Shown here piece after piece: positions 1 through 48,669 of a stretch of 48,669 nt of DNA. The translations under genes were made by a program, and so were the position numbers. The DNA comes from a virus (taxonomy: Duplodnaviria; Caudoviricetes): the IMG/VR virus record IMGVR_UViG_3300044699_000043, positions 1 to 48,669 of that record; one strand, 5' to 3'. Below the pieces are notes generated by a model. The model ran no database searches, was not told the DNA's origin, and was given only the letters and a program-made list of their open reading frames with translations. Within the stretch, counting starts at the first letter, position 1, and each line of letters begins with the position of its first letter.

Positions 1-3000
1 GAGGCGAATGCGATCGTCGAAATCGATTAATCTCTGAGGGGAACTCACGGTTTTACGGGCCAATCGCGGAGGCCTGCCTCCGAATAGACGTATGTATAGG
101 AGATGCCGTCGATCGAAATATCGTTAACCCCTAGTATCGAACTCCCTCAATGCGAAAAAACACAATGCTATGCCACACAACCGCCGACGCTATCGCAATA
201 TTAGCGAAGCGGAAGAGTATTTCGGAGAAGTTTGAGTATTGACATTTCGGTAATTGACGCTAGGATCGTCAAGTAACATAGCGATCGCGGGACCGATTTG
301 ATGGCATTGCGGAAGATAAGTTACTTGAATCGTCTATCCGGGTGCGAACATGCTAGTACGAACAAAGCTGCGGCAGTCGGAAAAACATCAACGCATCGAT
401 TCTGCGGACGTCGCCAAGAGTTTCTACCACCTACAAGAAAATGAATTGACGACTCGAGCCGCGGAAAATTGATTTGCCATTTCGTTGACTTGACGGGTCG
501 ATCGGCGATTTTTTCCAGGGTAGACCAACGTAAGTGGGCAAATCTTGGCTTTACACCAAGCACGTTCGCTGGAAGGAAGGCGGATCATGGCGTGTCGTCA
601 TTCAAACGCTTTCTTAGCGCGACTCCCGGCGGCCTTCTTACAAGCTCGCTGTGGTCTTCCCGTTGCGACTTCCAAAAGCGTTCTTCTTGAAGGGACATAG
701 AGGAGTCGAATTTCGATGACCTGTCAGCGATGCAGTCCTGCTGCGAGTTGCATAGACTGTTAGATCCTGCAGATCATGATGGACTACGTGTTGGACGCAA
801 AATTATAGCGTGGAAGATCGATTCGCGCGCTCGGCATCGGGGAAGGGGAACTTTCGATTCTACCATACTCAAGCTTCACGAAAGAGACGAGGTGAAATCG
901 CTAGAGTATTCGCTGGGAACGGCGGCGTCGGATCGATCATATGTATCCTCTACTTTGAACGTTGATCTCACTCGGTCTTTGATATGGTCTCAGTTCCTTG
1001 GAGTGATAACAGATTTCGCGGTGGATCAAAGAGCAGCGAACTCGCATGTAGCTGTAAAGTCTTGTGTTTTAGTCGAGGATCGGCTCGAGGAAGGCGTCCA
1101 TGTTTGTAGATCGTCTCGATCATGAAGTTGATCTGGACAACACTAGTGAAGCAGTAGTACTGCACACGGAAGATGAAGTGCATCAATGAGTCACACGAAG
1201 GTCATACTCGTCGCCGAGATTAGGAATTTTGATACATTTCGAATGTTTGCCTCATCGCCCACCTATGAGTCCGAGGGAAAGACGGGTGTTGAGATTTGAA
1301 TCGACAATGCGGGAATTGTTGTTTGCATAGATTCGACGTTTCTGCTGCTGGTTTTTAATTTTCTGATTGCAACGAATGCGACGACCCCGGTCGTCGAATC
1401 GGATTCCACATTCAAGGTGGACATGTCCCATCAGACTGGAATCTTCAGAGAGGATACAATCCGGAAGCCTCTAGTATCGGGGTATATTCCGTATCCAATA
1501 TCGATGACTGAGTCGGGGTGGACATCAACGACCTCGAACCACCACGCCGCGTGCAGAAGCATCCATTTGAGTCGTAGCTCAACAGAACACTAACGACTTG
1601 CTTGGTGTGGAATAGGGAAGGCGCCGACCAATCCCAATAAATAGATCTGGACTTAAGAAATCACCGCACAGTAGACCGAACCAAGACTCGAACCAATTCG
1701 ATTGTGCCCACCCAAGTCTACGCAGGCGATTACCGACTCTGTTCGGCGGACCGTAGAAACGCGGTTTCGAAATCCGTAAGTCAAGCGATGTATGGAGTTC
1801 GGTTCCGGCTTACGCATCGAGAGCGGCTTGAAGCGGTAATGATCGAGATCGATGAGTAAGGCTAGACGGCGATTTGGTCGAGCCAGCTGTCAAGCTATCC
1901 GAGACATATGCGATTGACTGCGTACTGACTAGTCGCGGCTTTACGTAAATTATGAAGTACGGTCCGTTCGCCCACGACATGAGAGAGACCAAGCAGAGCG
2001 ACAACGTCGCCAGCGGACGGCAAGCCCATTACGATTCGATGCAACCGAACGTCAACCAACGATTGTTGGTTTGATAGTGAAAGCAACCGTAATGACCGTA
2101 GGATCCCGAGTCGTAAGCTCTCACCACTCCGCAATCCTATCAGTCAATTGCCGCCGCATAGACAGGAAGCCCGTATAGACATTCGGAACGGAAGATCCCT
2201 TGGCGATCATTCGAACTGAACTGACGCCGGCGAACTCCTCGGAAGAAAGAAGTCGGAATTCTTACGGCGGCCTTGCGACGCATCACTTAAGAGCCGGTAC
2301 GTTCGGAAGGTGCGTCGCGCGAGATAGCATTGGCAAGCCCCTGCAGACGCTCAACTAGGATCGAGCAATCACTCCGTCGTACCGATCGAATTCTCGGCGG
2401 TAAATGTGATTCGACGGTTGGGATAGAGCCCTGGGCTTGCTGAAGTCGCTGTCGATCGAACTCGTAAGTCGAAACACCAGGGCATCTAACCATACCACTG
2501 AAATGCAGCCATTTGACGAGCAGTCCGCCTGACGGCCAAGTGAAGTTGCGAGATGCTGATAGTGGATTGACGGACCGCATCGTTGATTTTGCATGATGAA
2601 GTCGCCGGAAATGCCGGGTCGTCTTGCTTTGAGCAAGAAGCGAGAGGCATCGTGCGATCTCAGACCTTGAGGAAAGTCGTCGATTCGTGGCCTCATCAGC
2701 GGTACAGACCGACTAACGAAGAGACCGGGTACTTAAACAGAATTGAGCAGCTAGTCGTTAGTGAGTGCCACGTAATCCAGCTGGCAGACTACTCCGCCCG
2801 GGCCAGTAGTGGCCGTCATGCCCATGAGACCGATAGGGAACCCGTCGGCAGCACTCTACGGTGAGTGCTCGCCCCAGGCCCCCCCCCTGCCCCCCGCGGG
2901 AATTCACTGCCTTCGGGTACAGTTGGATCCCGTAGAGAGGTCTAGCCACACGGTCGTATCCCCGTCGGCATTGACAGCGGCCCAGGATAGAGCGGGTGAG

Positions 3001-3050
3001 AAATGTTCGGATCTGCTCGGCCTCCCGACCGCAAACTGACACCATCCTTG
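1..3050 (-). repeat. Degraded inverted copy of ~5,800-9,100 (fold-back; probable read artefact)
   Basis: 1-165 aligns by eye to the reverse complement of ~8,935-9,103. 2,761-2,815 (GTGAGTGCCACGT...GGGCCAGTAGTGGCC) matches the reverse complement of ~6,075-6,130. ~2,890-2,950 matches the reverse complement of ~5,940-6,010. Many indels and substitutions throughout. Confidence 0.9.
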
Positions 3051-4750
3051 TGCAGCGTGTAGAATAGCCTCACTACTTCATCTCGTACCTTCCCTTGTAA
3101 GGAAGACTCCACCTAGTCGAATGGTACCTATCCATTATGTGGTGACACGAATACCATATCATCGAATGAGTTCCACGATAGAGTTCTTAGTCTCAATAGT
3201 CCTTCCACATACTCGATTGAACGTTCATGAAATACTGAAGTGTCATATACGACCATAGCGCATTGCCTATCCTACAAGAACAACCAGCACATTTGTCATA
3301 AAACTCACACTTCATCCCAACTGTACCACACTAATAACATTTCAACCCTCTCTACTCCCCACTAATGCCCCATACTCTCGAGTCATCCTTTCTTATTCTC
3401 CACACCTAACATCTCTTCGACTCCCCCATCTTCTCATACCACAGTAAAGCCCTTCAACTTCATATGATCAACCTCCTCTTTCTTCAACTCACTACTTTAT
3501 ACTCCAATCCTAATCTTCAAATTCTAATCTATTAATCTGAACCCCACCTTACTAAACCAAGTAACTACAACCAACTCCTCCAATCAACCACAAACCCTTT
3601 CAATATTCACCATTCCACCGCTGAATAACTTAAAACCCCCCCCTCCACTCAAACCACTATCAAATCTAAGTATTTATAACTGATATAATATCTCACCCTC
3701 CCAAATTTACTCTATCAATCATATATACTATTCAATAACCTATACTCTATTCAACATATCATGACCCCTCCTACTCACTGCAAAACTACACCTCAACCCC
3801 ACTCACACATGTATTTCAATCTTTCAAAATTACTTACGCTGCCTTCTCAAAAACCTATCATCACCCATAATTAACCACCCACATACTGTAATCTCCTTCA
3901 CATCTAAACTCCAATCTCACCTGCCTCTTAAACTCGAACTTACCTAATCCCCACTTCCCTACTTCACATAACCACAATTACTACATACATGTTCCCAATT
4001 AAACTTTACATCGTCTCAACATCTCTCTCCACTCCATCCTTCCATAGCAACTCTATATCTGACAATACTCCTCACCCCTCTAACACTCAATTAACAACTC
4101 TCTCCAACTAAATCAATCTTTCTAATACTCAACGTTCACATCCTCACCGCTCTACCTCACGATCTATCATCCAATATTCTTAAGCCTTACAACTTTAATA
4201 AGTCTCTTATTCCTCAACTCATTATCAAAACAAACAACTATAATACTCTTCTGACTAATGTCTAAACCCCAAACTCACTCTGTAATTAAACATGTTCACG
4301 TCCCAAAATATCAACCTAAACCATTCAAACTTTTCTTCCTCCTCCACCCTATTGCCAACCACGTTTACTAGAATTTCAACACAAAACCACCACCACCTAA
4401 TATTTATATATCTATGCACCCCCCACTTTCATGTCAAATCATCAAAGAAAATCAACTTTTCCCTTCCCTTCCATTAGACCTTCATTTCAACTGCAGACAG
4501 GGCAATCTACATTTCCCACAACCTCTCTTTACCCACACTACCACTTCGACCACACAGCAGAACTCTAGCCACTCCACAACTACGAAGCTTGACCTCGTGT
4601 CCAACACAGCAACTTACTTCTAATCCACGTACATACCACCGCCCACAATCCTTATTCCAACGATGTTCACTCATCGTGCACCTGCGCCACACTCCGAGCT
4701 ATGAACATTCTTACCCATGTTCTCACACCATATTTGCTGTCATAGGTACT
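3050..4750. other. G-depleted C/A/T low-complexity tract around the fold-back centre (probable basecalling noise)
   Basis: Almost no G and no credible ORFs. Spans the symmetry axis (~4,450) of the inverted copy. Confidence 0.75.
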
Positions 4751-4778
4751 AATCACATTAATCTCGTCCATATCGCTC

Positions 4779-4859
4779 GATGCCTTGAATGCGATGCGCG
4801 GCTATAGTGGCGCCGAAGACTCCGAAACAGATTCGCAGTACGATGACTACCAAGATTAG
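4779..4859 (+). CDS. 3' remnant of a gene upstream of the HNH nuclease (5' part lost in degraded sequence)
   Basis: Reads DALNAMRGYSGAEDSETDSQYDDYQD* and overlaps the HNH start. Confidence 0.45.
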   Translation, partial: DALNAMRGYSGAEDSETDSQYDDYQD

Positions 4860-7752: not shown

Positions 7753-8133
7753 ATGAGCGAAAGCATTCTGAAAAGTATCAAGAAGGTTCTGAATCTCGGC
7801 GACGATTATGACGTCTTCGATGTGGACACGTTGATGCACATCAACTCCGTGTTCAGTACACTGCATCAGCTAGGTGTTGGTCCCGATCAAGGCTTCATGA
7901 TCGAGGACGATCTACAAACATGGGACGCCTTCCTCGGAGCCGATCCTCGACTGAACAACATCAAGACTTACATCTATCTGCGAGTTCGTCTGCTCTTTGA
8001 TCCTCCTCAAACTGGTTATCACACCAAGGCACTGGAGGACCAAATCAAAGAGCTCGAGTGGAGGATCAACGTTCACAGAGAGGATACGAAATGGATCGAT
8101 CCGACGCCTCCGGTGGTCCCGATCGAGGAGTGA
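7753..8133 (+). CDS. Putative head-to-tail adaptor/connector
   Basis: SILKSIKKVL...HINSVFSTLHQLGVGP...YIYLRVRLLFDPP...ELEWRI, a conserved siphovirus family. RBS AGGAGG. Confidence 0.6.
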   Translation: MSESILKSIKKVLNLGDDYDVFDVDTLMHINSVFSTLHQLGVGPDQGFMIEDDLQTWDAFLGADPRLNNIKTYIYLRVRLLFDPPQTGYHTKALEDQIKELEWRINVHREDTKWIDPTPPVVPIEE

Positions 8134-8465
8134 CGTCGGTCGTCGATTTCCTCGAGCACTATGGCGTGAAGGGCATGAAGTGGGGTAAACGAAAGAATGC
8201 CCCATCCGCCGATGCTGCGGCTGCGAATTCGATTCGAACCACGGCGAAAAAGAAGGGCGTCCACACAGTATCCAACAAGGATCTGCAGGATGCTATCAGG
8301 CGAATGCAACTCCAGCAGGACTTCAAGCGGCTGACGGTCAACGAGAAATCGCCGGTCGCTCGATGGATCGCTTCAACGCTGTTGGAAGTCGGCAAGCGGG
8401 AAGTCCAGCAGCGAGCTGTGAAGAAGGCCGCCGGATTCGCGGCTAAGAAAGCGGTGGGTGCATGA
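8130..8465 (+). CDS. Small basic protein with N-terminal LEHYGVKGMKWG motif
   Basis: GTG start overlaps the previous stop (GTGA). HYGVKGMKWG motif. Confidence 0.75.
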   Translation: MTSVVDFLEHYGVKGMKWGKRKNAPSADAAAANSIRTTAKKKGVHTVSNKDLQDAIRRMQLQQDFKRLTVNEKSPVARWIASTLLEVGKREVQQRAVKKAAGFAAKKAVGA

Positions 8466-12026: not shown

Positions 12027-14030
12027 GTGGATGACCACGATTTCGGTGGTTACGCGACCAAGGTTGGTCTCAAGTGCTCGGACGGGCGAACGATCACGTC
12101 CGATGCTTTCAAGCACATGGACGGGCAGGAGATTCCTCTCGTCTGGCAGCACGTACACGACACCCCCGACAACATCCTCGGTCACGCGAAACTCGAACAT
12201 CGCGAGAACGATGGGACCTACGCATTCTGCTACTTCAACGACACTCCGTCGGCGAAGAATGCCAAGCTGCTGGTCGAACACAAGGACGTCAAGGCTCTTT
12301 CGATCTATGCCAATCAGCTGGTCGAGAAGAACAAGAAGGTCCTGCATGGTGAGCTGTGCGAAGTCAGTCTCGTTCTGAAGGGCGCGAATCCCGGAGCGAA
12401 GATCGACTATGTTCGCGTGGCTCACGGCGATGACGTAGAAGTCCTCGCCGACGAAGCCGTTATCTACACGGACACCGGTCTCGAACTTCGTCATGCCGGC
12501 GACAAGAAGACGTATCAGGACGTCTACGAGACGCTGGACACGGACCAGCAGGAACTCTTCGACTTCATGCTGAAGCAGGCTCTCGGCGACAGCGGGGCCG
12601 CGAAGCATTCGTCGGAAGGCGACAAGCCAGAAGACGAGAATGACGAAGAAGGCACGAAAGCCGGCGAGGATGACAAGCCGGATGAGGATGACAAGAACGA
12701 AGAGACCGTGGACGACCCGGCTCTCGAGCACAAGGAGAACGACGAGATGACGCGCAACGTCTTCGAGAACAACAAGGATGGCAAGGGCGGCCCCGGCGAA
12801 GTCAAGCGCGGCGGAACGCTGACCCACTCGCAGATTCAGACCCTGGTCGACGACGGGCACAAGCTGGGCTCCTTCAAGGAGGCCGTTCTCGCGCACGCGG
12901 AAGACTACGGCATCACCAACATCGAGATGCTTTTTCCTGACGCGCAGGCCATCGACAACAAGCCCGAGTGGATCACTCGGCGCATGGAGTGGGTCGAGGG
13001 CGTTCTCAATGGCACTCGGAAGCTCCCCTGGTCCAAGATCAAGTCGATGTCTGCGGATCTGACCCACGAAGACGCGCGCGCCAAGGGCTACATCAAGGCC
13101 ACCATGAAGAAGGAGCAGTTCTTCACGATCGCCAAGCGTGAAACCACGCCCAAGACGATCTACAAGAAGCAGAAGCTCGACCGCGACGACATCATCGACA
13201 TCACCGACTTCGATGTCGTGGCCTGGCTCTGGGTCGAGATGTACTTCATGCTTCGCGAGGAGATCGCCCGCGCCATCCTGGTCGGTGACGGACGTGAGAT
13301 CGACGACGAGGACAAGATCGACGAGACCAAGATCCGTCCGATCGCCTTCGACGACCCGTTCTACACCGATGTCATCAATGTCCCCGCCAACGTCGCTTCG
13401 GGCGATCTGATCGAGGCCGTTCTCCGCGGGCGGAACAGGTACAGGGGTACCGCACCAAAGGCGTACATGACCAACGCGGTCATGGTCGACATGCTCCTCT
13501 CCAAGGACAGCCTGGGTCGCCGGTTCTACAACACCACGGCCGATCTCGCCGCTGCTCTGGGCGTTTCCGAGATCGTCGAGGTTCCGGTTCTCGAGGGCGT
13601 TCAGCGTGACGGCGCCGAAGTTCTGATGATCATCGTCAATCTCGGCGACTATGCAGTCGGTTCGACCCGTGGTGGCGAAATCACCAAGTTCGACGACTTC
13701 GACATCGACTACAACCAGAACAAGTACCTGATCGAAGGCCGGATGTCCGGCGCACTGCAGAACTACAAGCGTGCGCAGATCGTTCTCCGCGGTTCGGGCA
13801 CTCTGGCCACTCCGACGGCTCCGACCTTCGTCACGAGCACCGGTGTCGCAACCATCCCGACTGTCACCGGCGTCACCTACAAGAACCAGACGACCGGCGC
13901 GACCCTTTCGTCCGGCGCGCAGACCGCCATCGCCGCGGGTGCTTCGATCTCCATCGTGGCTGTTCCCAACACCGGCTACTACTTCCCGCACAACTTCGAC
14001 GCGGACTGGACCTTCACCCGCGATCTGTAA
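12027..14030 (+). CDS. Prohead protease-scaffold-major capsid fusion
   Basis: N-terminal HK97-type protease (PLVWQH, LSIYA, EVSLVLKGANPGA), an acidic linker, a capsid domain (EEIARAILVGDG) and a Thr-rich C-terminal domain. Confidence 0.9.
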   Translation: MDDHDFGGYATKVGLKCSDGRTITSDAFKHMDGQEIPLVWQHVHDTPDNILGHAKLEHRENDGTYAFCYFNDTPSAKNAKLLVEHKDVKALSIYANQLVEKNKKVLHGELCEVSLVLKGANPGAKIDYVRVAHGDDVEVLADEAVIYTDTGLELRHAGDKKTYQDVYETLDTDQQELFDFMLKQALGDSGAAKHSSEGDKPEDENDEEGTKAGEDDKPDEDDKNEETVDDPALEHKENDEMTRNVFENNKDGKGGPGEVKRGGTLTHSQIQTLVDDGHKLGSFKEAVLAHAEDYGITNIEMLFPDAQAIDNKPEWITRRMEWVEGVLNGTRKLPWSKIKSMSADLTHEDARAKGYIKATMKKEQFFTIAKRETTPKTIYKKQKLDRDDIIDITDFDVVAWLWVEMYFMLREEIARAILVGDGREIDDEDKIDETKIRPIAFDDPFYTDVINVPANVASGDLIEAVLRGRNRYRGTAPKAYMTNAVMVDMLLSKDSLGRRFYNTTADLAAALGVSEIVEVPVLEGVQRDGAEVLMIIVNLGDYAVGSTRGGEITKFDDFDIDYNQNKYLIEGRMSGALQNYKRAQIVLRGSGTLATPTAPTFVTSTGVATIPTVTGVTYKNQTTGATLSSGAQTAIAAGASISIVAVPNTGYYFPHNFDADWTFTRDL

Positions 14031-26583: not shown

Positions 26584-26944
26584 CTGGTCGGTGATCGTCG
26601 TGGCCATAATCAGCCTGATTGGGGCTGCTCTGTCCGGTAGAGCAGCAAAAAACGCAACAAAAATCACTACCGAAGCTTCGATCGCCAACTCGAAATTGTT
26701 GGCGGAAACAGAAGCGTATAACCGTGCTCGAAAGATGGATGTTGAAACGATCGAGCACAAAACCAACCAGATCAAAGAAATCAGAGCCGAACACGCAGAA
26801 ACAATTCGACAAATAAAGAAGAATAACGAAGAGCTTCGCGGAAAAGTTCGCGAACTTAAAGCGGATAACGAAAAACTACATCAAGAGAATTTGAAACTTC
26901 GAGAAAGAGTAACTCGACTCGAGCAAGGAGAATTCAGTGGATAA
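26570..26944 (+). CDS. Membrane-anchored coiled-coil protein
   Basis: N-terminal TM segment followed by a heptad-rich region. Confidence 0.75.
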   Translation: MDASNWSVIVVAIISLIGAALSGRAAKNATKITTEASIANSKLLAETEAYNRARKMDVETIEHKTNQIKEIRAEHAETIRQIKKNNEELRGKVRELKADNEKLHQENLKLRERVTRLEQGEFSG

Positions 26945-27299
26945 CACCGGTTTCATCATCCCCCCGAATCTGTACAACTTTCTGAAATTCGTTTCCCTGG
27001 TTCTTCTGCCGGCTGCGGCAGCTCTGGTGATCACTCTCGGCACGATTCTGGGCTGGGATGGTGCTACAGTCACTGCGGGTGTCATCACGGCTTTCGACAC
27101 CTTCATGGGCCTGGTCCTGGGGAAGAGTTCCAGCAACTACAAACAGAGCGAACCCGAGAATGTCGGAGATCTCGTATTCGGTACGGACGAAGACGGTGCC
27201 ACGATCATCAAGCGGGTGCAGATCAACAAGGAAAACCCGGTCTTCAACGTTGGAAGTCGACTCAATCTGAACGTCGTTCGAGAAGTTGACCATCCTTAA
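26937..27299 (+). CDS. Holin (Dp-1-like)
   Basis: LYNFLKFVSLVLLPA...DTFMGLVLGKSSSNY, two TM segments. Confidence 0.7.
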   Translation: MDNTGFIIPPNLYNFLKFVSLVLLPAAAALVITLGTILGWDGATVTAGVITAFDTFMGLVLGKSSSNYKQSEPENVGDLVFGTDEDGATIIKRVQINKENPVFNVGSRLNLNVVREVDHP

Positions 27300-27331
27300 T
27301 CGCAAGAAATACATGGCTAATAATGAGACCC
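27300..27331 (+). promoter_or_regulatory. Repeated promoter-like motif P1
   Basis: TCGCAAGAAATACATGGCTAATAATGAGACCC, followed by RBS GAAAGGA and ATG 27349. Confidence 0.8.
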
Positions 27332-27348
27332 CTCGAAAGGAATTAGCC

Positions 27349-27621
27349 ATGTTCAAGAAGGATCCTCTCAAAGCCCGAATCGACACCGAGATTCACCAGC
27401 TCCTCGACCTTATGGGTCAGGAAAACGGTTACACCGACGCTTACAAGTCGATGGCCAGCCACGTAGAAAAGCTCATGGAGTTGAAGCAAAAAGACTCCAT
27501 CAGCAAAGACACGTGGGTGACCGTCGGCACACACATCGCCGGCTTGATCGTCATCCTGAACCATGAACGAGCGCACGTGATCGCCTCGAAGGCGTTCGGA
27601 CTTTTGAAGAAGACTGTCTGA
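27349..27621 (+). CDS. Hypothetical protein (cassette 1)
   Basis: RBS GAAAGGA. MFKKDPLKARID...GLIVILNHERAHVIASKAFGLLKKTV. Confidence 0.75.
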   Translation: MFKKDPLKARIDTEIHQLLDLMGQENGYTDAYKSMASHVEKLMELKQKDSISKDTWVTVGTHIAGLIVILNHERAHVIASKAFGLLKKTV

Positions 27622-27646
27622 TCTGCTACACCCAAGAAGCCTCGAG

Positions 27647-27690
27647 CCATACGACCTGTACCCCTCCCCCGTACAGGTCGTATGGTTTTC
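27647..27690 (+). terminator. 15-bp perfect hairpin ending GGTTTTC
   Basis: CCATACGACCTGTAC (27647-61) pairs with GTACAGGTCGTATGG (27671-85), then TTTTC. Confidence 0.75.
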
Positions 27691-27708
27691 GGGGATTTAA
27701 GTTTTTGC

Positions 27709-27740
27709 TCGCAAGAATTACAAGGCCTATAATGAGACCC
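27709..27740 (+). promoter_or_regulatory. Repeated promoter-like motif P2
   Basis: TCGCAAGAATTACAAGGCCTATAATGAGACCC. Confidence 0.85.
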
Positions 27741-27758
27741 CTATGAAAGGAATACCTC

Positions 27759-27917
27759 ATGAACAAGAAAGACCTCGCCATCATCGCCGGCCCAATCGTC
27801 GGTGCTGCTGCATTCTTCGCTGTGAACCTCGCAGTCGGAGCATACATCAAGCACCGGGAGAACAAGCCCGCCAAGAAGGACGTCATCACCGAACTCATGG
27901 AAGAAGCCCAGAAGTAG
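27759..27917 (+). CDS. 52-aa membrane protein (cassette 2; absent from ORF track)
   Basis: RBS GAAAGGA. MNKKDLAIIAGPIVGAAAFFAVNLAVGAYIKHRENKPAKKDVITELMEEAQK*. Confidence 0.75.
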   Translation: MNKKDLAIIAGPIVGAAAFFAVNLAVGAYIKHRENKPAKKDVITELMEEAQK

Positions 27918-27923
27918 ATATTC

Positions 27924-27959
27924 AAACCGACAAGCCCCGCACAGGGGCTTTAGGTTTTC
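27924..27959 (+). terminator. Conserved hairpin H-a (terminator or processing site)
   Basis: AAACC-GAC-AAGCCCC-GCACA-GGGGCTT-TA-GGTTTTC. Confidence 0.65.
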
Positions 27960-27972
27960 GAAAGGGAATGAA

Positions 27973-28056
27973 ATGGAAATGAAAGTAATCACGATCGCAC
28001 TTATTGTTGCATTTCTTCTCTACGTGGCATTCATTATTTCGATTCTTGTCGCTTAA
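27973..28056 (+). CDS. 27-aa hydrophobic micropeptide
   Basis: MEMKVITIALIVAFLLYVAFIISILVA*. AAAGGG upstream. Fills the gap between H-a and P3. Confidence 0.55.
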   Translation: MEMKVITIALIVAFLLYVAFIISILVA

Positions 28057-28057
28057 A

Positions 28058-28089
28058 TCGCAGAATTTACATGGGCTATAATGAGACCC
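28058..28089 (+). promoter_or_regulatory. Repeated promoter-like motif P3
   Basis: TCGCAGAATTTACATGGGCTATAATGAGACCC. Confidence 0.85.
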
Positions 28090-28108
28090 TACTAACGAAG
28101 GAAAGCCC

Positions 28109-28340
28109 ATGTTCAAGAACAAAGCGTTCCAGATTCAGATGGTCGATGCCAAGAAGAACGCCGAAAGCGTCATCGAAGACACCCCCGTCCACACCGTAGA
28201 ACCCGCCGAGATCGCACAAGATCGCCGCGGACTATACGATTCAGACCGTGGTTGCCGTCGGTGCCGTGATCGCCGCCAACAAGGTATTGACCACCATCTG
28301 CGACATCGCCGTACTTGCAGCGAAAGCCAAACTGAAGTAG
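28109..28340 (+). CDS. Hypothetical protein (cassette 3; one apparent +1 error near 28,218)
   Basis: RBS GAAGGA. Removing one base gives ...EPAEIAxIAADYTIQTVVAVGAVIAANKVLTTICDIAVLAAKAKLK*, ending just before hairpin H-b. Confidence 0.65.
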
Positions 28341-28344
28341 TAAC

Positions 28345-28376
28345 AACCAACAAGCCCGCAAGGGCTTTAGGTTTTC
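28345..28376 (+). terminator. Conserved hairpin H-b
   Basis: AACC-AAC-AAGCCC-GCAA-GGGCTT-TA-GGTTTTC. Confidence 0.65.
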
Positions 28377-28392
28377 CAGAAAGTAGAGTCTC

Positions 28393-28515
28393 ATGAGAAA
28401 GTATCCCCGAAGAAAAATCAACTTCGCAGAATTCTGTTTGCTCTGCATTGGACTTCCCGCCATATTTTTGGCGATGTGCGCTTGCGTAATCTTCATCGTT
28501 ATTTCCCTGCACTGA
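28393..28515 (+). CDS. 40-aa Cys-rich hydrophobic micropeptide
   Basis: MRKYPRRKINFAEFCLLCIGLPAIFLAMCACVIFIVISLH*. Fills the gap between H-b and P4. Confidence 0.55.
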   Translation: MRKYPRRKINFAEFCLLCIGLPAIFLAMCACVIFIVISLH

Positions 28516-28516
28516 A

Positions 28517-28541
28517 TCGCAGGATTTACACGCCATGTAAT
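28517..28541 (+). promoter_or_regulatory. Repeated promoter-like motif P4
   Basis: TCGCAGGATTTACACGCCATGTAAT. Not followed by an RBS or ORF. Confidence 0.75.
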
Positions 28542-28543
28542 GA

Positions 28544-28670
28544 AGAGAAGAGATTCGAAAGAATTCCGAGACACGAATGCGTGGGTGAGATACCCACCCG
28601 GAGTGGCAGCACTCTAGAAGAAGCTGCTTAATGGATAGTTTTCGCTGGGCTATCACCTCTTCTCTATTTT
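28544..28670 (+). ncRNA. Candidate structured small RNA driven by P4
   Basis: Terminal 9-bp stem AGAGAAGAG/CTCTTCTCT plus ATTTT, enclosing four hairpins. Confidence 0.6.
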
Positions 28671-28695
28671 GTCCAAATCCTGGAAGGAAAGAATC

Positions 28696-29145
28696 ATGAA
28701 GTATTGGATCATCGCCATTTGCGTCACGATCGTTCTCACGGTCGTGGGCCTTTTCTTTTTCCACCCTCGATCTCCCCTGAACCGTACGGATGGTGTCGCT
28801 CCCGTCGCCGTACAGCAGGTACCAGCCGCGGAGCTGAGTCTTCCGCTCGTGGATCTCGAAGGAGACTGGCATGCCGTCGCGAATGGTATCCGGTTCGAGG
28901 CCGAAGTCACGGGCAGCATCATCAAGATCAACATGTACACCGAAAGTGGCTTGGAGGCTCTGTACTGGTTCGGCAGTTTCCACAACTCCGAAGAAGCCGG
29001 CAAGACCATCACGTCCGAGGCGGACGACAGTCGAGTCGCGCTGTCTTCGGACAAGACCAAGATCTTCGAGGTCGACAAGACCACCCTGACTTTCGAATTC
29101 CAGGCCATGGGCATCAAGAAGTCCGTGGTGATGAAGCGTGGATAA
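28696..29145 (+). CDS. Membrane-anchored/secreted beta-rich protein
   Basis: RBS GAAGGA, N-terminal TM segment, DLEGDW...LYWFGSF. Confidence 0.75.
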   Translation: MKYWIIAICVTIVLTVVGLFFFHPRSPLNRTDGVAPVAVQQVPAAELSLPLVDLEGDWHAVANGIRFEAEVTGSIIKINMYTESGLEALYWFGSFHNSEEAGKTITSEADDSRVALSSDKTKIFEVDKTTLTFEFQAMGIKKSVVMKRG

Positions 29146-29366
29146 CAACACTGCACTCGTCTTGCTGGTGGGAACCATCACTCTCGGTACCACCTTTTCG
29201 AGGCTGATCAAAGCAAAATACAAGATCGAAAAAATTGTGAAAGAAGAAACAAATGACGATGAAAACAGTTCTGAAGGTCGCCGAGAAGTTCGTGACGGAG
29301 AACTCCCCCGGGATTCTGACGGGCCTGGAGTGGCGGGGGCGGTAACAACCGCGGTCTTGGCGAGTA
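29138..29366 (+). CDS. Small membrane protein (3' end uncertain because of a frameshift)
   Basis: MDNNTALVLLVGTITLGTTFSRLIKAKYKIEK. GTG start overlaps the previous gene. Confidence 0.4.
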
Positions 29367-30018
29367 AAGCAGGATATTCGTCGGCGTTAAAAATCCAGGC
29401 CAAGGAGCATCTGCGAGTTGATCTCGACGAAGAAGCTCTCGAAACCAAGGAAAAGATCAAGCTCGTCTGGAAAAGAATTCATTCCGGCAGCTGCCGCTGG
29501 AACCGTGACGGTTGCGGCAATCATCGCTGCGAATCAGATCGGTACTCGCAGGACGGCAGCCATCGCGGCGGCTTTCAAGCTGTCCGAGCAGATCACCGAT
29601 GAGTACAAAGACAAGGTCATCAAGACCTTGGTGTGCTCAAAAGGAAGAAAAAATGCGGTCGGAACTCGCGGCCGAGAAGATGGAGCAGAATCCTCCGCCC
29701 TCGAACATGATCATCGTGACGGGCTCGGACGTTCTGTTCCTGGACGAACTGTCAGGACGGTATTTCCACAATCAGGTGGAGAACATCAAGAAGGCCGTTA
29801 ACGACATCAACCACCAGGTCAACAACAACTACTGTGCCTCGCTCACCGAGTTTCTACGAGCTGATCGGTCTCGAGGGCACGAAATTCTCCAATTCTGTCG
29901 GTTGGAACACGACGAGCTGCTCGAGGTGCAGTTCACCCCGACCATGTTCGAAGACAAGCCGGCAATCCTTCTCGGCTTCAACCACGAGCCGATTTCCGGC
30001 TACGACCGCTGCCAGTAA
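29253..30018 (+). CDS. DUF6353-like protein, broken by several single-base errors
   Basis: Pieces in successive frames: MTMKTVLKVAEKFVTENSPGILTGL / VAGAVTTAVLASKA / AAAFKLSE / LFLDELSGRYF / FYELIGL...VGWN. Confidence 0.6.
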
Positions 30019-30027
30019 GGGATATTC

Positions 30028-30569
30028 ATGTTCAAGAAGACGATAAAGTTCGAAGACTTCAACGGTCAGGAACATACGAGAGACTTCTACTTCCACCTTT
30101 CGAAGGCCGAATTGATGGCACTCGCCTCCGATGGCGAGAACTCGATGCAGTCTCGAGTCAAGCGAATCACGGAGTCGCAAGATGGAATCGCCGTCCTCAA
30201 CGAGTTCCGTGCCCTCATCGAGATGTCGGTCGGCATGCGTTCTGAGGACGGATCTCGGTTCATCAAGAATGATGCAGCGAAGAGCGAACTTCTGGACCTC
30301 TCCGGCCTTCGACGCGCTTCTGATGGAACTGATCACTGTGGAAAACGGTGGGTCGGACTTCGTCCCAGCAACTGGTCCCGGAGAAGATGATGAAGGAGAT
30401 CCTCGACCAGGCCAAGGCTGCGGGCATGCCGAAGACCGGGGTGGAAGAAGAGGACAAGCGACCGGCGTATCAGAAGGAGAATCGAGCGGCAACTCGCGCG
30501 GAGCTCGAAGCCATGAGCAAGGAAGAATTGGTTTACGCGATGGCCTGGGCCGAAAGCCGTCCGAGGTAA
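30028..30569 (+). CDS. Conserved phage protein (frameshifted near 30,290-30,365)
   Basis: MFKKTIKFEDFNG...DFYFHLSKAEL...RSEDGSRFIK / SPAFDALLMEL / LVPEKMMKE. Confidence 0.6.
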
Positions 30570-30575
30570 TTCCTG

Positions 30576-30686
30576 TGCGGATGGGGGTTTGGCGAGGATG
30601 CCGCCGTGCCAGCGGAGGGTCTCCATCCTGTACCAGACGCCAAACTTAAACGACAGCTGATGGCCGGAAATGCGCCCCCGCTCGCA
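30576..30686 (+). ncRNA. Candidate structured intergenic RNA element
   Basis: Nested pairings TGCG/CGCA, GGGG/CCCC, GTTTGGCG/CGCCAAAC, AGGATG/CATCCT and CCGC/GCGG. Confidence 0.5.
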
Positions 30687-30705
30687 ATAATTCGAAAGGA
30701 ACGAA

Positions 30706-30879
30706 ATGGTATTTTTTGACGCCGTTCTCGCCGCGAACGGAACCGTGTTGTTCAATGGGATTCAGGAAGAAGCCCAGAAGTTCATCCGTGAGAACGCTTC
30801 GGTTTTGGGGGAGGATTGCGTCGCCGTTCGAGGTAGGGATTTGGAATTCTTCTCGTTGGAGGACTACCTGAAGTTGTAA
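30706..30879 (+). CDS. 57-aa hypothetical protein (absent from ORF track)
   Basis: RBS GAAAGGA. MVFFDAVLAANGTVLFNG...LEDYLKL*. Confidence 0.7.
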   Translation: MVFFDAVLAANGTVLFNGIQEEAQKFIRENASVLGEDCVAVRGRDLEFFSLEDYLKL

Positions 30880-30880
30880 T

Positions 30881-30912
30881 TCGCAGGAATTACATGGGGT
30901 ATAATGAGACCC
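30881..30912 (+). promoter_or_regulatory. Repeated promoter-like motif P5
   Basis: TCGCAGGAATTACATGGGGTATAATGAGACCC. Confidence 0.85.
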
Positions 30913-30931
30913 CATTTGAAAGGAACCAAGC

Positions 30932-31183
30932 ATGGACAAGATTGCCGTTCTCAAGAAGACCGTGACTACCATCATTGGCTTCGGAGCCTCCAAGATCGTG
31001 AATGACATCATCGCCAACAACGTCGTGATCGAACACCCTCACCAAAAAGTGACAGTGCCCGTGACCGCCTTTGCCATCGGCGGTGCTGTCGCGAACGCAT
31101 CTTCGGAGTACACCGACAGCTTCATTGATGAGATCGTGGACGCCTGGAAGACGATCAAAGCCCGCATGAACACTGCCGAATGA
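30932..31183 (+). CDS. Hypothetical protein (cassette 5)
   Basis: RBS GAAAGGA. Lies between P5 and hairpin H-c. Confidence 0.75.
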   Translation: MDKIAVLKKTVTTIIGFGASKIVNDIIANNVVIEHPHQKVTVPVTAFAIGGAVANASSEYTDSFIDEIVDAWKTIKARMNTAE

Positions 31184-31188
31184 CAACC

Positions 31189-31220
31189 AAACCGAAAAGC
31201 CACACGGGCTTTAGGTTTTC
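31189..31220 (+). terminator. Conserved hairpin H-c
   Basis: AAACC-GAA-AAGCC-ACACG-GGCTT-TA-GGTTTTC. Confidence 0.65.
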
Positions 31221-31242
31221 CATTTTCCAGGAATAGAGGGTC

Positions 31243-31884
31243 ATGACAGCCGAATTCCCCGGTAATTCCAAGATGCCCCGCCCTCAGGCTCCGGAGAAGC
31301 CGGAGAAGAAGGTCGAGTCGGTCGTCACCAACAAGGTGGAAACACGAAAGAAACCGCTGCTGAAGCGTTTCGCCAATATCTTCATCGGTGGCGATTCGAA
31401 AAGTGTGCTGAACTACGTACTCATGGACGTGCTCGTCCCGCAAGCAAAAGACATGATCACTGAAGCGGCAAGTCAGGGCTTCGAAAGGTTGATCTATGGA
31501 GAATCACGCCCAAGCAATCGCTACCGCGGTGGCTCACGTACTGGATCCGGTCCTGTCCCGTACAACCGATATGCCGTTCGAGGTAACAATCCAATCGGAC
31601 GGTCGGCGGATTCTGATCGACGCCCGGTGGTTGGAGCAAGGACACAGCATGTTGACGAAATACTTCTTGCGACTCGAGTAGAAGGCGATCTGGTCCTCGA
31701 GCGGATGTACGATCTTCTCGAGAATTACGAGACAGTCAGTGTTGCCGATCTGAACAGTCTCGTCGATCGATCCTCCACCTACGTAGACCAGAAATGGGGT
31801 TGGACAGACCTTCAAGGTTCCGTGGTTCGTCGGGTCCGAGACGGTTACATCCTCGATCTCCCGAGGGTCGTCTCACTCGACTAG
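31243..31884 (+). CDS. Conserved hypothetical protein
   Basis: FPGNS...DVLVP..KDMI...VSVADL...KWGWTDL...GYILDLP. Confidence 0.75.
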   Translation: MTAEFPGNSKMPRPQAPEKPEKKVESVVTNKVETRKKPLLKRFANIFIGGDSKSVLNYVLMDVLVPQAKDMITEAASQGFERLIYGESRPSNRYRGGSRTGSGPVPYNRYAVRGNNPIGRSADSDRRPVVGARTQHVDEILLATRVEGDLVLERMYDLLENYETVSVADLNSLVDRSSTYVDQKWGWTDLQGSVVRRVRDGYILDLPRVVSLD

Positions 31885-43428: not shown

Positions 43429-43543
43429 TTGCCAAGATTTTTCCAAAAAACTTTTTTATAATTACGTAATATCTATACTCTTTACGCGCGTAGTAGATAA
43501 TATACATAAATTATAGAAAAGTTTTTGCGAAAAATCTTGGCAA
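43429..43543. repeat. 115-bp AT-rich imperfect palindrome (candidate replication origin)
   Basis: TTGCCAAGATTTTTCCAAAAAACTTTTTTATAATT ... AATTATAGAAAAGTTTTTGCGAAAAATCTTGGCAA, with central TACGCGCGTA. Confidence 0.8.
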
Positions 43544-43598: not shown

Positions 43599-43623
43599 TC
43601 GCAAGAAAAACATGGATTATAAT
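43599..43623 (+). promoter_or_regulatory. Repeated promoter-like motif P6
   Basis: TCGCAAGAAAAACATGGATTATAAT upstream of the nuclease-nuclease-polymerase operon. Confidence 0.8.
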
Positions 43624-43675: not shown

Positions 43676-43981
43676 GTGGGAAAACTTGAGAACGAGTACA
43701 AAAGAGGGTTGAAGAAACGCATCGAGGCTCGCTTTCCCAAATGCATCATCTTGAAGAATGATGAGCAGATGCTACAAGGCATCCCCGACATGACGATTCT
43801 ATGGGGATCTTGTTATGCAGTGCTCGAGGTGAAGCGAAGTGTGGATGCTCCGTTCCGACCCAACCAGGAATGGTATCTGGACGAGGTCGCAATGATGGGC
43901 GGTATCTCCTTCGTCATTTACCCTGAGATCGAAGAAGAGGTTCTCGATGCGGTTCAACAATCATTCGAAGCTCGCGGGTAG
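43676..43981 (+). CDS. VRR-NUC-like nuclease / putative resolvase
   Basis: LENEY, GIPD...LEVK, RPNQEWY. Confidence 0.8.
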   Translation: MGKLENEYKRGLKKRIEARFPKCIILKNDEQMLQGIPDMTILWGSCYAVLEVKRSVDAPFRPNQEWYLDEVAMMGGISFVIYPEIEEEVLDAVQQSFEARG

Positions 43982-44513
43982 TCATGCGTTCATGAGCCCA
44001 AGTAGTTATCACTGGGTGAACTACGATGAACAGAAGATGGACGCAAGTATCTTTGCCTCTTTCTCTGCTCGACGTGGGACTGAGTTGCACGACCTCGCAC
44101 AGAAGGCTATTCGTCTCGGTGTCAAGTTTCCAGACACCGAGGAAACCATGTGCAAGTATGTAAACGACTGTATCGGGTTTCGAATGACTCCCGAGCAAAC
44201 CCTGTTCTACTCACAAAACTGCTTCGGTTGCGCCGATGCGATCGGCTTCAACTCCGCCAAGAAGAAACTTCGTATTTTCGATTTGAAAACCGGAATCACA
44301 AAAGTGAAGGTGACTCAGCTCGAAGTGTATGCGGCACTGTTCTGCCTGGAGTATAACTTCAAGCCGACAGAGATCGAGACAGAACTCAGAATTTACCAGA
44401 ATGATGAGGTTCAGATCTTCGAGGGCGATCCCCTTGAGATCGGTCGGATCATGTCGCAAATCGTGGTATACGATCGTCGTATTGATGAGCTGAGGATGGA
44501 GGCTTACGGATGA
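43947..44513 (+). CDS. PD-(D/E)XK / Cas4-like (DUF2800-like) exonuclease
   Basis: SPSS, RGTELH, FGCADAI, IFDLKTG, QLEVYA. Confidence 0.75.
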   Translation: MRFNNHSKLAGSHAFMSPSSYHWVNYDEQKMDASIFASFSARRGTELHDLAQKAIRLGVKFPDTEETMCKYVNDCIGFRMTPEQTLFYSQNCFGCADAIGFNSAKKKLRIFDLKTGITKVKVTQLEVYAALFCLEYNFKPTEIETELRIYQNDEVQIFEGDPLEIGRIMSQIVVYDRRIDELRMEAYG

Positions 44514-47149
44514 CAATCGTTTCTCAAGACGATTACTTTGCTCACTATGGAATTCTTCGTAAGTCCGGGCGGTATCCTTGGGGATCTGGTGGTCCCGAAA
44601 ACTCGGGTAGCGCAAACTTCTTGGGTTACGTGGCTGAGCTTCAGGGCAAGGGGTTGTCTGAATCTCAAGTTGCGGAAGGTATGGGTATCACAACCACCCA
44701 ACTTCGTGCCGCCAAATCAATCGCTAAGAATGAAGAACGCCAAGCCAATATCAATATGGCTACTCGATTGAAAGACAAAGGTATGTCTAACGTCGCTATT
44801 GGCGAACGTATGGGCATTCCCGAGTCAACCGTCCGTACACTTCTTGAGCCAAGTGCGAAAGACAAGGCGGACGTTCTTCTCAGCACATCGAACATGCTGC
44901 GAGATGAGGTCGTAGACAAGAAATACCTGGACATCGGATCTGGTGTCGAGAATCATCTTGGAATTAGCAGCACCAAATTGGCCACTGCTGTGGCCGTCCT
45001 CCAAGAGGAGGGCTATAAGATCCACTATCTGAAAGTCAGGCAACTCGGTACCGGCAAGGAAACGACTCTCAAGGTTCTCTCCGCACCGGATGTTTCTTAC
45101 TCCGAGGTATCGAAGAATCGAGCGCAGATCAAGCAGATCCAGCATTTCACCGAAGACGGTGGACGCTCATTTGTCGGAATTCAGAAGCCCTTGTCCGTGA
45201 GCAGCAAACGGGTTGGTGTAAGGTATGCCGAAGACGGCGGAACTGATTCGGATGGTGTTATTCACGTCCGCCCAGGCGTTGAAGACATCAGCCTTGGTGG
45301 GGCACGATATGCCCAGGTTCGAATTGCTGTTGATGGGACGCATTACCTCAAAGGCATGGCCATGTACAAGGACGATCTGCCTAAGGGCGTCGACCTTGTC
45401 TTCAACACGAACAAGAAAAACACGGGCAACAAGCTAGATGCCATGAAGGCTATGAAGGACGACCCAGACAATCCGTTTGGTGCCGTTGTTCGACAGAAGA
45501 TCGACCCGAAGACTGGCAAAGTCAAGTCGGCGATGAACATCGTCAACGAAGAAGGGGCCTGGGATTCTTGGTCTAAGAACCTTTCTTCTCAGCTGTTGTC
45601 GAAGCAGAGTCCTACTCTGGCCAAGCAGCAACTGGATATGACTTACGAAAGGAAGAAGCGCGAATTCGACGACATCAACAAGCTTACGAATCCTGCTGTC
45701 AAGAAGAAGCTTTTGGAATCGTTTGCTGGTGATGTTGATTCCGCAGCCGTTCACTTGAAGGCTGCCGCACTTCCTCGTCAGAGGTCGAGCGTGATTCTTC
45801 CAATCAACTCCCTGAAAGAAACTGAGATCTACGCGCCAAACTTCAGGAATGGAGAACGCGTTGCTCTCGTCCGCTATCCACACGGCGGTATCTTTGAGAT
45901 TCCAGAACTCACCGTAAACAACAACCATCCCCAAGCCAAGCGCGCACTTGGTCAGGCTCGAGATGCAGTCGGCATCCACTCGAAGGTAGCAGAAAGACTG
46001 TCTGGTGCAGACTTCGATGGCGATACGGTTCTTGTTATACCCAATAACAAGAAGCAAATCAAGACTGCCCCTGCTCTTGCAGGTCTGAAGGGGTTTGATC
46101 CACAGCGTTCGTATCCAGCATATGAGGGTATGAAACGTATGTCATCTCGAACAAAAGCCATTCAGATGGGCGAAGTATCGAATCTCATCACCGACATGAC
46201 TATTCGTGGTGCATCCACCACTGAGCTTGCTCGTGCTGTGCGCCATTCTATGGTGGTCATCGATGCTGAGAAGCACAACCTAAACTACAGGCAGTCCGCA
46301 ATAGACAATGGTATTGGGCAACTCAAGGCCAAGTACCAAGGTGGTACCAGAGCAGGCGCATCTACGCTGATCTCTCGAGCCAAATCAACTATTGATGTGG
46401 AAGAAAGGAAGGCCCGCCCTGCTGCAGAAGGTGGGGCTATAGACAGGGCCACCGGTGAGCGTAAGTTTGTACCTACTGGTGCTACTCGTGTGAACCAGAA
46501 AGGCGAGACTATACCTCGTACCATAAAGGTACGTAAGCTTGCCGAAGCAAGTAATGCACACACCCTTTCTTCTGGTACCCCAATTGAGAAGGTGTATGCA
46601 GACCATTCCAATAAGCTCAAGGCTCTGGCTAATGAAGCACGTAAGGTGTCGATCAATACCAAGACCACACCATACAGCCCGTCTGCCAAGATCGCCTACC
46701 AGAATGAGGTTAATAGCCTCCGTGCCAAATTAAACGTGGCCCTTAAGAATGCGCCCCTTGAAAGGCAGGCCCAGCTTCTAGCAAACGCCACCGTCAAGGC
46801 CAAGCGAGATGCCAATCCTGACATGGACAAAGCTGAATTGAAGAAGATTCAAGGAATGGCTTTGACTCAAGCGCGAATTCGTACTGGAGCTGGGAAGAAG
46901 AGAATCGACATCACCCCTCAAGAATGGGCGGCCATCCAGGCTGGTGCTGTCAGCAACAACACATTGACACAGATTCTTACTAATGCAGATCTTGATAAGG
47001 TTAAGGAACTGGCTACACCTAGGTCTGCTGTTCTTATGACTACTACCAAGACCAATCGTGCTAAGTCTATGGTCGCTGCTGGCTACACTCAGGCAGAGAT
47101 AGCGGACGCTCTTGGGGTATCACTGACCACACTCAAGACTGTAGTGTGA
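44510..47149 (+). CDS. Putative single-subunit two-barrel RNA polymerase with HTH domains
   Basis: SDG, QVR..KGM, LVRYP and LSGADFDGDTV. Two N-terminal HTHs and one C-terminal HTH. N-terminal FAHYG...YPWG leader. Confidence 0.75.
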   Translation: MTIVSQDDYFAHYGILRKSGRYPWGSGGPENSGSANFLGYVAELQGKGLSESQVAEGMGITTTQLRAAKSIAKNEERQANINMATRLKDKGMSNVAIGERMGIPESTVRTLLEPSAKDKADVLLSTSNMLRDEVVDKKYLDIGSGVENHLGISSTKLATAVAVLQEEGYKIHYLKVRQLGTGKETTLKVLSAPDVSYSEVSKNRAQIKQIQHFTEDGGRSFVGIQKPLSVSSKRVGVRYAEDGGTDSDGVIHVRPGVEDISLGGARYAQVRIAVDGTHYLKGMAMYKDDLPKGVDLVFNTNKKNTGNKLDAMKAMKDDPDNPFGAVVRQKIDPKTGKVKSAMNIVNEEGAWDSWSKNLSSQLLSKQSPTLAKQQLDMTYERKKREFDDINKLTNPAVKKKLLESFAGDVDSAAVHLKAAALPRQRSSVILPINSLKETEIYAPNFRNGERVALVRYPHGGIFEIPELTVNNNHPQAKRALGQARDAVGIHSKVAERLSGADFDGDTVLVIPNNKKQIKTAPALAGLKGFDPQRSYPAYEGMKRMSSRTKAIQMGEVSNLITDMTIRGASTTELARAVRHSMVVIDAEKHNLNYRQSAIDNGIGQLKAKYQGGTRAGASTLISRAKSTIDVEERKARPAAEGGAIDRATGERKFVPTGATRVNQKGETIPRTIKVRKLAEASNAHTLSSGTPIEKVYADHSNKLKALANEARKVSINTKTTPYSPSAKIAYQNEVNSLRAKLNVALKNAPLERQAQLLANATVKAKRDANPDMDKAELKKIQGMALTQARIRTGAGKKRIDITPQEWAAIQAGAVSNNTLTQILTNADLDKVKELATPRSAVLMTTTKTNRAKSMVAAGYTQAEIADALGVSLTTLKTVV

Positions 47150-47229
47150 GAGGAGGATAGCGATGCCAGTACACATGCTTCAAAGACGCTTGGTAGTAGA
47201 TTTCACGTTGCTAATTACAAGGTGTTAGT

Positions 47230-48669
<1,440 letters not shown>

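Follow-up and report, generated by a model that had tools for sequence, protein, structure and literature searches.

A predicted single-chain two-barrel RNA polymerase in a tailed-phage genome, with a promoter-like repeated element and a candidate packaging leader

The locus considered here raises the question of how a phage RNA polymerase consisting of a single chain can find its promoters, and whether such an enzyme can enter the host from the virion. The DNA analysed (hereafter the window) is the whole of the IMG/VR virus record IMGVR_UViG_3300044699_000043 (Duplodnaviria; Caudoviricetes), 48,669 nucleotides (nt) in length, and the gene in question is an open reading frame (ORF) of 879 amino acids (aa) at 44510..47149 on the + strand. 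A first-pass annotation, made from the sequence alone, had described its product as a two-barrel RNA polymerase with built-in helix-turn-helix (HTH) domains, which reads a motif present in six copies and may be injected from the virion. How one-chain polymerases of this type find their promoters is left open in the paper on YonO (PMC5467207). The explanation that we favour, and to which we give slightly better than an even chance, is that the ORF encodes a one-chain two-barrel enzyme, which reads the repeated element through its own HTHs, is packed into the head by means of a leader containing the residues HYG, and starts early transcription. The parts of this explanation differ in their strength, viz. 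catalysis on DNA (i.e. a DNA-dependent RNA polymerase) is very probable, the reading of the element by the polymerase is probable, and its packaging into the virion is fairly likely.

The catalytic and HTH motifs described in the first-pass annotation were all located within this ORF, and their conservation was determined in 149 aligned family members showing 45-82% identity to the query. The beta-like barrel motifs DG, QxR and KG (45242..45358, + strand) correspond to TDSDG (aa 245-249), QVR (aa 269-271) and KGM (aa 281-283), and the beta-prime-like barrel motifs (45866..46024, + strand) to LVRYP (aa 453-457) and GADFDGD (aa 499-505; nt 46004-46024). The residues G249, Q269, R271, K281, G282, R455, P457, D501, D503 and D505 are found in all 149 members and D248 in 147 of them. 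In terms of the eight invariant active-site residues of two-barrel polymerases (four Asp, three basic and one Pro; the list is from the available part of PMC2919709 and was mapped here by the order of the motifs), seven are invariant in 149/149 members and the eighth, D248, is the residue retained in 147/149. The three HTH segments, viz. HTH1 (aa 48-66; 44651..44707), the sigma-region-4-like HTH2 (aa 91-112; 44780..44845) and the C-terminal HTH3 (aa 858-876; 47081..47137), all on the + strand, are covered in 147, 149 and 148 of the 149 members, respectively, and within HTH2, E105 is kept in 133/149 and R109 in 140/149. Pfam HTH/sigma-region-4 models match aa ~86-113 and 848-877, supporting HTH2 and HTH3, while HTH1, for which the Pfam scan of the 879-aa protein gave no match, forms three helices in the structural model.

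The AlphaFold model, based on an 81-sequence alignment (predicted local distance difference test score, pLDDT, 86.9; predicted template modelling score, pTM, 0.76), shows a leader modelled with low confidence, followed by two HTHs near the N-terminus, two strand-rich clusters, a helical part and an HTH at the C-terminus, and the catalytic motifs sit, with high pLDDT, in the strand-rich clusters at aa ~235-347 and 425-511. When this model was compared with the PDB by Foldseek, a check that had been proposed at the outset, the matches were, in order, QDE-1 (E 4.7e-11), RDR2, the phage polymerases P74 gp62 and gp64 (template modelling score, TM, 0.45 on the target), the P23-45 virion polymerase gp96 and cellular subunits; there were 31 matches at E<=0.001, and every listed one is a two-barrel polymerase. 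Based on the strand clusters and these matches, the protein is predicted to contain a pair of double-psi beta-barrels. Over the whole chain, the TM-scores reach only 0.34-0.36 on the query (root mean square deviation ~20), and these low values count against this assignment, although they are expected because the appended domains differ. A PDB sequence search with the single protein gave 0 matches, and the profile search gave only HTH matches and a weak match to AR9 beta-prime (E 1.8). The ESM Atlas holds no model of the 879-aa protein, and its features return the family itself and a cluster of RNA-dependent RNA polymerases (RdRPs) at 0.88, which is a lead only. Judged by its motifs and predicted fold, the ORF is a well-supported candidate for a one-chain two-barrel polymerase, and to this extent the earlier call is upheld.

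The protein is a member of the PHROG 4291 / phage 1706 ORF75 family (full-length match, E=0, aa 4-877), with which it shares full-length homology, the terminal HTHs and the place after VRR-Nuc and exonuclease genes near the genome end; its identity to orf75 of Lactococcus phage 1706 is 38% over aa 3-878. Matches were found in 250 of 50,697 phage records (249 with at least 80% coverage), mainly from phages of Arthrobacter (95), Gordonia (55), Streptomyces (54) and Lactococcus (13), and at 50% identity and E<=1e-30 the family falls into 927 clusters. Two of the records, MT771347 (Arthrobacter phage Paella) and MT684600, have two matching places each. Many members are present on long bacterial contigs and these are probably prophages. 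The statement that such proteins are annotated merely as HTH proteins is correct for most of the 60 matches listed, which are described as HTH or hypothetical proteins, but five RefSeq rows among them, and PHROG 4291 itself, are labelled RNA-dependent RNA polymerase. This label, together with the best structural match being QDE-1 and the RNA amplification raised for YonO-like proteins in the available part of PMC2919709, would fit a protein that is not a transcriptase but a polymerase working on RNA templates, an enzyme that makes primers, or an HTH-type activator of the host polymerase with a repurposed barrel core. However, the match to the eukaryotic RdRP family (PF05183) reaches 13.1 bits against a gathering cut-off of 23.8, YonO is strictly DNA-dependent according to the available part of PMC5467207, and the window protein carries three DNA-binding modules in a phage that has its own primase-polymerase, so that we regard a role of this kind as highly improbable.

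The DNA element that the polymerase is proposed to read has the form CGCA-N5-TACA-N7-TAATGA, with fixed spacing, and its boxes, CGCA, [TA]ACA and ATG[AG], are spaced approximately one helical turn apart. The six-copy motif of the first-pass annotation is real, as the window contains five exact copies, where shuffles give an expectation of 0.13, and in addition a variant with 3 mismatches at 43600. All of these promoter-like copies are on the + strand, viz. P1 (27301..27326) directly after the holin gene, P2 (27710..27735), P3 (28059..28084), P4 (28518..28543), P5 (30882..30907) before the replication genes, and the variant P6 (43600..43625), which heads the VRR-Nuc / exonuclease / polymerase operon and has a counterpart at the same place family-wide. 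In these positions, the element stands at the head of the cassettes of small genes, of the replication block and of the operon of the polymerase itself. A GACCC/ribosome-site/ATG pattern follows P1-P3 and P5 and is lacking after P4, where the succeeding 217 nt (28544-28760) are without the usual ribosome site and start and contain several hairpins (-66 kcal/mol, a value with no shuffle control). Element copies with identical spacing are present in Streptomyces, Arthrobacter and Rhodococcus phages and in an oral phage, the numbers being 6 in RosaAsantewaa (whole genome), 10 in Gordon and 9 in the oral phage D_HF5_2C (~50 kb of each), and 15 in ReqiPepy6 (49.8 of 76.8 kb). In lactococcal phages the spacing is kept and the boxes are changed, mostly to CACA and TAGTAG in 1706 (12 sites) and CHPC971 (11), and mostly to TTTA in P092 (10). 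In P092, D_HF5_2C and ReqiPepy6, tRNA-like sequence is seen after some of the element copies.

The association of the element with the polymerase gene was examined in both directions. A matrix was trained on 65 sites, taken from 8 phage loci, and used to search 80 of the 315 independent genome_contigs loci. Many of the 80 are in Lachnospiraceae and Oscillospiraceae assemblies, and sense-strand sites upstream of the polymerase gene were found in 68 of the 80. The sites numbered 103 upstream, 12 downstream and 2 on the reverse strand, and there was usually one copy ~0.9 kb before the polymerase gene. A scan of IMG/VR starting from the motif gave at least 139 loci, with 53 contigs of at least 38 kb, and the polymerase was present in 39 of the 50 contigs tested, which had been chosen by the exact motif alone; it was found in 20/21 multi-copy contigs (the copy number coming from locus length for four) and in 19/29 single-copy contigs, and two of the three contigs left untested are already known polymerase carriers. 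These results show that the element belongs to the polymerase-bearing phage group. They also lend circumstantial support to the claim that the polymerase reads the motif. However, the co-occurrence of motif and gene does not single out the polymerase as the reader, as it is also expected if the phage group as a whole descends from a common ancestor, and the 80 loci hold many close kin.

A different reader of the element would be the host RNA polymerase. In a YonO-like late arrangement, the host enzyme, alone or with a phage factor, would read the element early, and the phage enzyme, produced from P6, would transcribe the structural operon after the genome ends join. We consider this unlikely, although several observations fit it. 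YonO, the single tested prophage member of the broad class, transcribes late genes (PMC5467207, available part); the structural operon is without a copy of the element in the window, RosaAsantewaa and 1706; the polymerase gene immediately precedes the genome end and the structural operon; in prophage-like members the start has to be driven by the host; and TATAAT is present in many element copies, so that host sigma might be able to use them in some hosts. Further, 53 of the 65 training sites have A at -11. A sigma-70 promoter should have a -35 box at 16-18 nt together with an A at -11, and the element does not conform to this. There were 0 canonical -35/-10 pairs in the window at 26900-31400, and when the element was scored without its -10 positions, an A where the sigma-70 -11A would lie was seen in no more than 20 of the 67 distinct sites (7 reverse hits), the commonest hexamer being TTTTAT (29/67 sites); in RosaAsantewaa, this A is present in 2 of the 6 copies. 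The element is without a -35 box, its spacing is fixed, and its boxes have been retained in phages of two host phyla. The late arrangement also leaves unexplained the leader of the polymerase, the label of the 1706 protein and a portal fusion, which are described below. A late promoter was sought by eye downstream of the polymerase gene in 14 loci, and no motif copy was seen there, only a conserved genome-end element. This genome-end element, which is strongly conserved, contains G/C inverted repeats, lies 250-550 nt after the polymerase gene (in L029, L062, L073, L250, L306 and others) and is common to actinophage-like and clostridial members, is probably the packaging site.

A natural variant bears on the proposed reading of the element by the HTHs. 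In P092, HTH2 is without the conserved E105/R109, and box 1 of the element is TTTA instead of CGCA, both cytosines having been lost. However, this covariation of HTH2 and box is seen in one lineage only, and in 1706 box 1 is CACA or looser and box 3 is TAGTAG, yet its HTH2 helix is of the usual kind.

The suggestion that the polymerase is packaged comes from its leader (aa 6-27; 44525..44590, + strand), with HYG at aa 12-14 (nt 44543-44551), a low-confidence part of the model that is a candidate packaging/protease-cleavage tag. The HxG..SG leader is kept in 148/149 sequences, with H12 in 143/149 and G14 in 149/149. A protein encoded in the head-gene region of the window, viz. the DUF7211 (HYG) leader protein (8091..8465, + strand; PF23847, E=6.4e-14), has a start related to this leader. 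Relatives of DUF7211 occur in 159 phage records, at 1-5 places in each and in varied proteins, almost all of them in the same phage group, and with a profile of the polymerase leader only, DUF7211-type ORFs made up 18 of the top 20 other matches, against 117 of 4255 ORFs. Further, the prohead protease-capsid fusion (12027..14030, + strand) has a linker with a repeated hydrophobic-x-His-small motif. In 39 sequences, this motif, which is similar to that of the polymerase leader, was counted 168 times in 8190 aa of the linker and 18 times in 11305 aa of the capsid domain, i.e. it is ~13-fold denser in the linker, which suggests that these are putative prohead-protease sites.

Two observations bear on a possible presence in the virion, viz. 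the label of the 1706 protein and a portal fusion in one homolog. In GenBank EU081845, the polymerase of 1706 (orf75) is labelled 'structural protein', and orf7, the sole other leader-bearing ORF of 1706, has the same label in RefSeq; the ReqiPepy6 record is labelled likewise. Among orf22-orf76 of 1706, only three ORFs are labelled structural (orf75, orf62 and orf71). The labels are taken here as they stand in the record, and are said to derive from virion mass spectrometry. Five homologs longer than usual were considered for fusions. In the homolog P0167, a portal domain is followed by a long insert and then by the polymerase core, while the leader and the HTHs are missing, and this homolog shares with P0164 and P0271 a size of ~1800 aa and a C-terminal polymerase core behind a portal or other long extension; the extensions of P0164 and P0271 have a short motif in common with P0167, and P0164, similar to P0167, is without any HTH, whereas P0271 retains HTH2. 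In P0130 and P0136, a 2H phosphoesterase is placed ahead of the leader. Portal and MuF fusions of 2H phosphoesterase-type domains are taken as packaged cargo in the available part of PMC5512222, in which YonO, RdRP and HYG are unmentioned. A scan with P0167 as the query gave 11 ordinary members. P0272 (N-terminal part polymerase, C-terminal part tape measure) and P0273 (N-terminal part DNA polymerase, C-terminal part polymerase) were set aside as likely assembly chimeras, because each is without half of the enzyme.

Several facts speak against packaging. The leader-profile matches are individually insignificant (E 0.07 or worse); the polymerase leader is unmatched by PF23847, a 25-position model, in the Pfam scan, only the first half being in common; the His pattern of the linker was picked after examples had been seen; orf62 and orf71, which are leaderless and outside the structural block of 1706, are also labelled structural protein; and the fusion proteins are single sequences, with 2 of the 5 long forms looking like assembly chimeras. 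The earlier suggestion of injection from the virion has circumstantial support, from the 1706 label, the likeness of the leaders and the His-motif linker. The polymerase might instead read the element without being packaged, the first molecules arising by host leak or read-through, followed by early and middle amplification, and the leader having another role. This would fit prophage induction, the virion evidence is indirect, and orf62 and orf71 suggest that the 1706 list may hold contaminants. However, such an account has to set aside a leader that is nearly universal in the family and resembles the leaders of the head region, and that is replaced by the portal fusion in one homolog, and we think it quite unlikely.

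According to the explanation that we favour, the leader would load the polymerase into the prohead, and after its injection, transcription would begin at P1-P6 through the HTHs, yielding the cassettes, the replication genes and the polymerase itself, with P6 before the polymerase operon providing positive feedback. Transcription of the structural operon would depend on read-through from P6 past the joined genome ends, on the host polymerase or on a second promoter class. The 'self-contained transcription system' proposed at first thus applies at most to the non-structural genes, as the structural operon has no motif, unless there is such read-through. One consideration against this sequence of events is that members that are probably prophages must start induction without a virion enzyme, i.e. 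in a host-driven manner, and this need keeps both the YonO-like late model and the unpackaged model alive. In its most far-reaching form, which we hold to be possible at somewhat less than even chance, the protein would be a 97-kDa complete transcription machine, with a two-barrel core, three HTHs, a three-box promoter and no sigma or host factor, which is loaded into the head by a His-cleavage tag common to a changing cargo set and injected into actinobacterial and Firmicutes hosts. If so, few self-initiating relatives of cellular RNA polymerase would be smaller, and there would be an explanation for the way in which a single phage group crosses host phyla. If the favoured explanation is correct, the locus would provide a small polymerase with its promoter as an orthogonal pair, and a candidate tag with which proteins could be loaded into phage heads. 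The candidate promoter, the natural variant pair (P092 versus the rest) and the phages in culture on laboratory hosts make the promoter question directly testable.

The contig is the near-complete genome of a tailed phage, in which every recognised gene is on the + strand, in the order HNH, terminase, portal, protease-capsid fusion, tail, holin, small-gene cassettes, primase-polymerase, helicase, VRR-Nuc, exonuclease and the 879-aa ORF, and the same gene order is seen in Streptomyces phage RosaAsantewaa (66% identity). The VRR-Nuc-type endonuclease and exonuclease genes (43676..44513, + strand) overlap and run into the polymerase gene. The window at ~1-4780 and 47220-48669 consists of degraded sequence and a poly-A tail and represents artefactual contig ends. 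Single-base indels between the window and its relatives at 28.2-31.2 kb indicate that the frameshifts there are probably errors; the polymerase ORF is undamaged, with 879-aa homologs at 95% identity. Beside the DUF7211 gene there is a 2H phosphoesterase gene (PF13563; 8462-8965, + strand) with both His motifs, possibly encoding a packaged enzyme against cyclic-nucleotide defence. Directly after the helicase gene, an AT-rich inverted repeat (43429-43543; 35-nt arms, 91% complementary) is a candidate replication origin, and a similar stretch follows the helicase of L081. The small-gene cassettes are closed by three similar short hairpins with a T-rich tail (27932-27961, 28352-28378 and 31200-31222). 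In contigs of relatives, joints are located at or beside element copies (window 27709, 28512 and 30881), including a skip of 30681-30881 and a jump from 28379 to 27709, which suggests that cassettes are gained and lost by recombination at promoters.

The assignment of the family as a polymerase is not new, and the novelty implied in the first-pass annotation was too high. Besides the PHROG and RefSeq labels, PMC2919709 (2010) counts the protein of phage 1706 among five families of the YonO-like kind, as one of them, gives the eight invariant residues and proposes a two-barrel polymerase, and bioRxiv 10.1101/842583 (2021) describes an RdRP match, HTHs at the N- and C-terminus and a DxDGD loop and proposes polymerase activity. 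The value of the present work lies in the promoter and packaging model. The word 'promoter' is absent from the available text of bioRxiv 842583, and the available parts of it and PMC2919709 are without leader or virion packaging; those of PMC5513430, PMC7302621, 2022.11.23.517428, PMC5883640 and PMC5759034 have no description of the element promoter or the polymerase. Literature searches turned up neither an experimental study of the family nor any reference to DUF7211. The element promoter and packaging model was not found in these searches, which did not take in the phage 1706 and ReqiPepy6 papers; the virion proteome or the repeats may be described there.

In comparison with known systems, the window protein is of the same family as 1706 ORF75 and the 'HTH DNA-binding domain protein' of Arthrobacter, Gordonia, Streptomyces, Rhodococcus and Microbacterium phages, and also as the putative RNA polymerase of FP_oengus (bioRxiv 10.1101/842583, available part), from which there is no family-level difference. 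Similar to the window protein, YonO of Bacillus prophage SP-beta is a phage-encoded protein of ~100 kDa with one chain and two-barrel motifs; it transcribes late genes from one start site, its promoter recognition being left open (PMC5467207), and in PMC2919709 the 1706 protein is assigned to a separate one of the five YonO-like families. The eukaryotic silencing enzymes QDE-1 and RDR2 are the best structural matches and have the same motif order, but their identity to the window protein is 10-14%, the RdRP score of the window protein is below the Pfam cut-off, and the window protein adds DNA-binding modules. For a short leader common to unrelated proteins, the capsid-targeting sequence and internal proteins of T4 provide a precedent; the T4 sequence is unrelated to the HYG leader, and the likeness is that of a short leader which resembles putative prohead-protease sites. 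The Thermus phage P23-45 proteins gp64 and gp96, both of which are among the Foldseek matches of the model, and gp66 from phi14:2, a crAss-like phage, are, similar to the window protein, one-chain two-barrel phage polymerases. Of these, gp96 is virion-delivered, has a repeated AT-rich motif and transcribes pre-early genes (bioRxiv 2022.12.01.518664, available part). However, gp96 is fused to the tape measure protein, whereas the window protein stands alone, with a short leader and three HTHs, in a genome in which one polymerase gene is seen.

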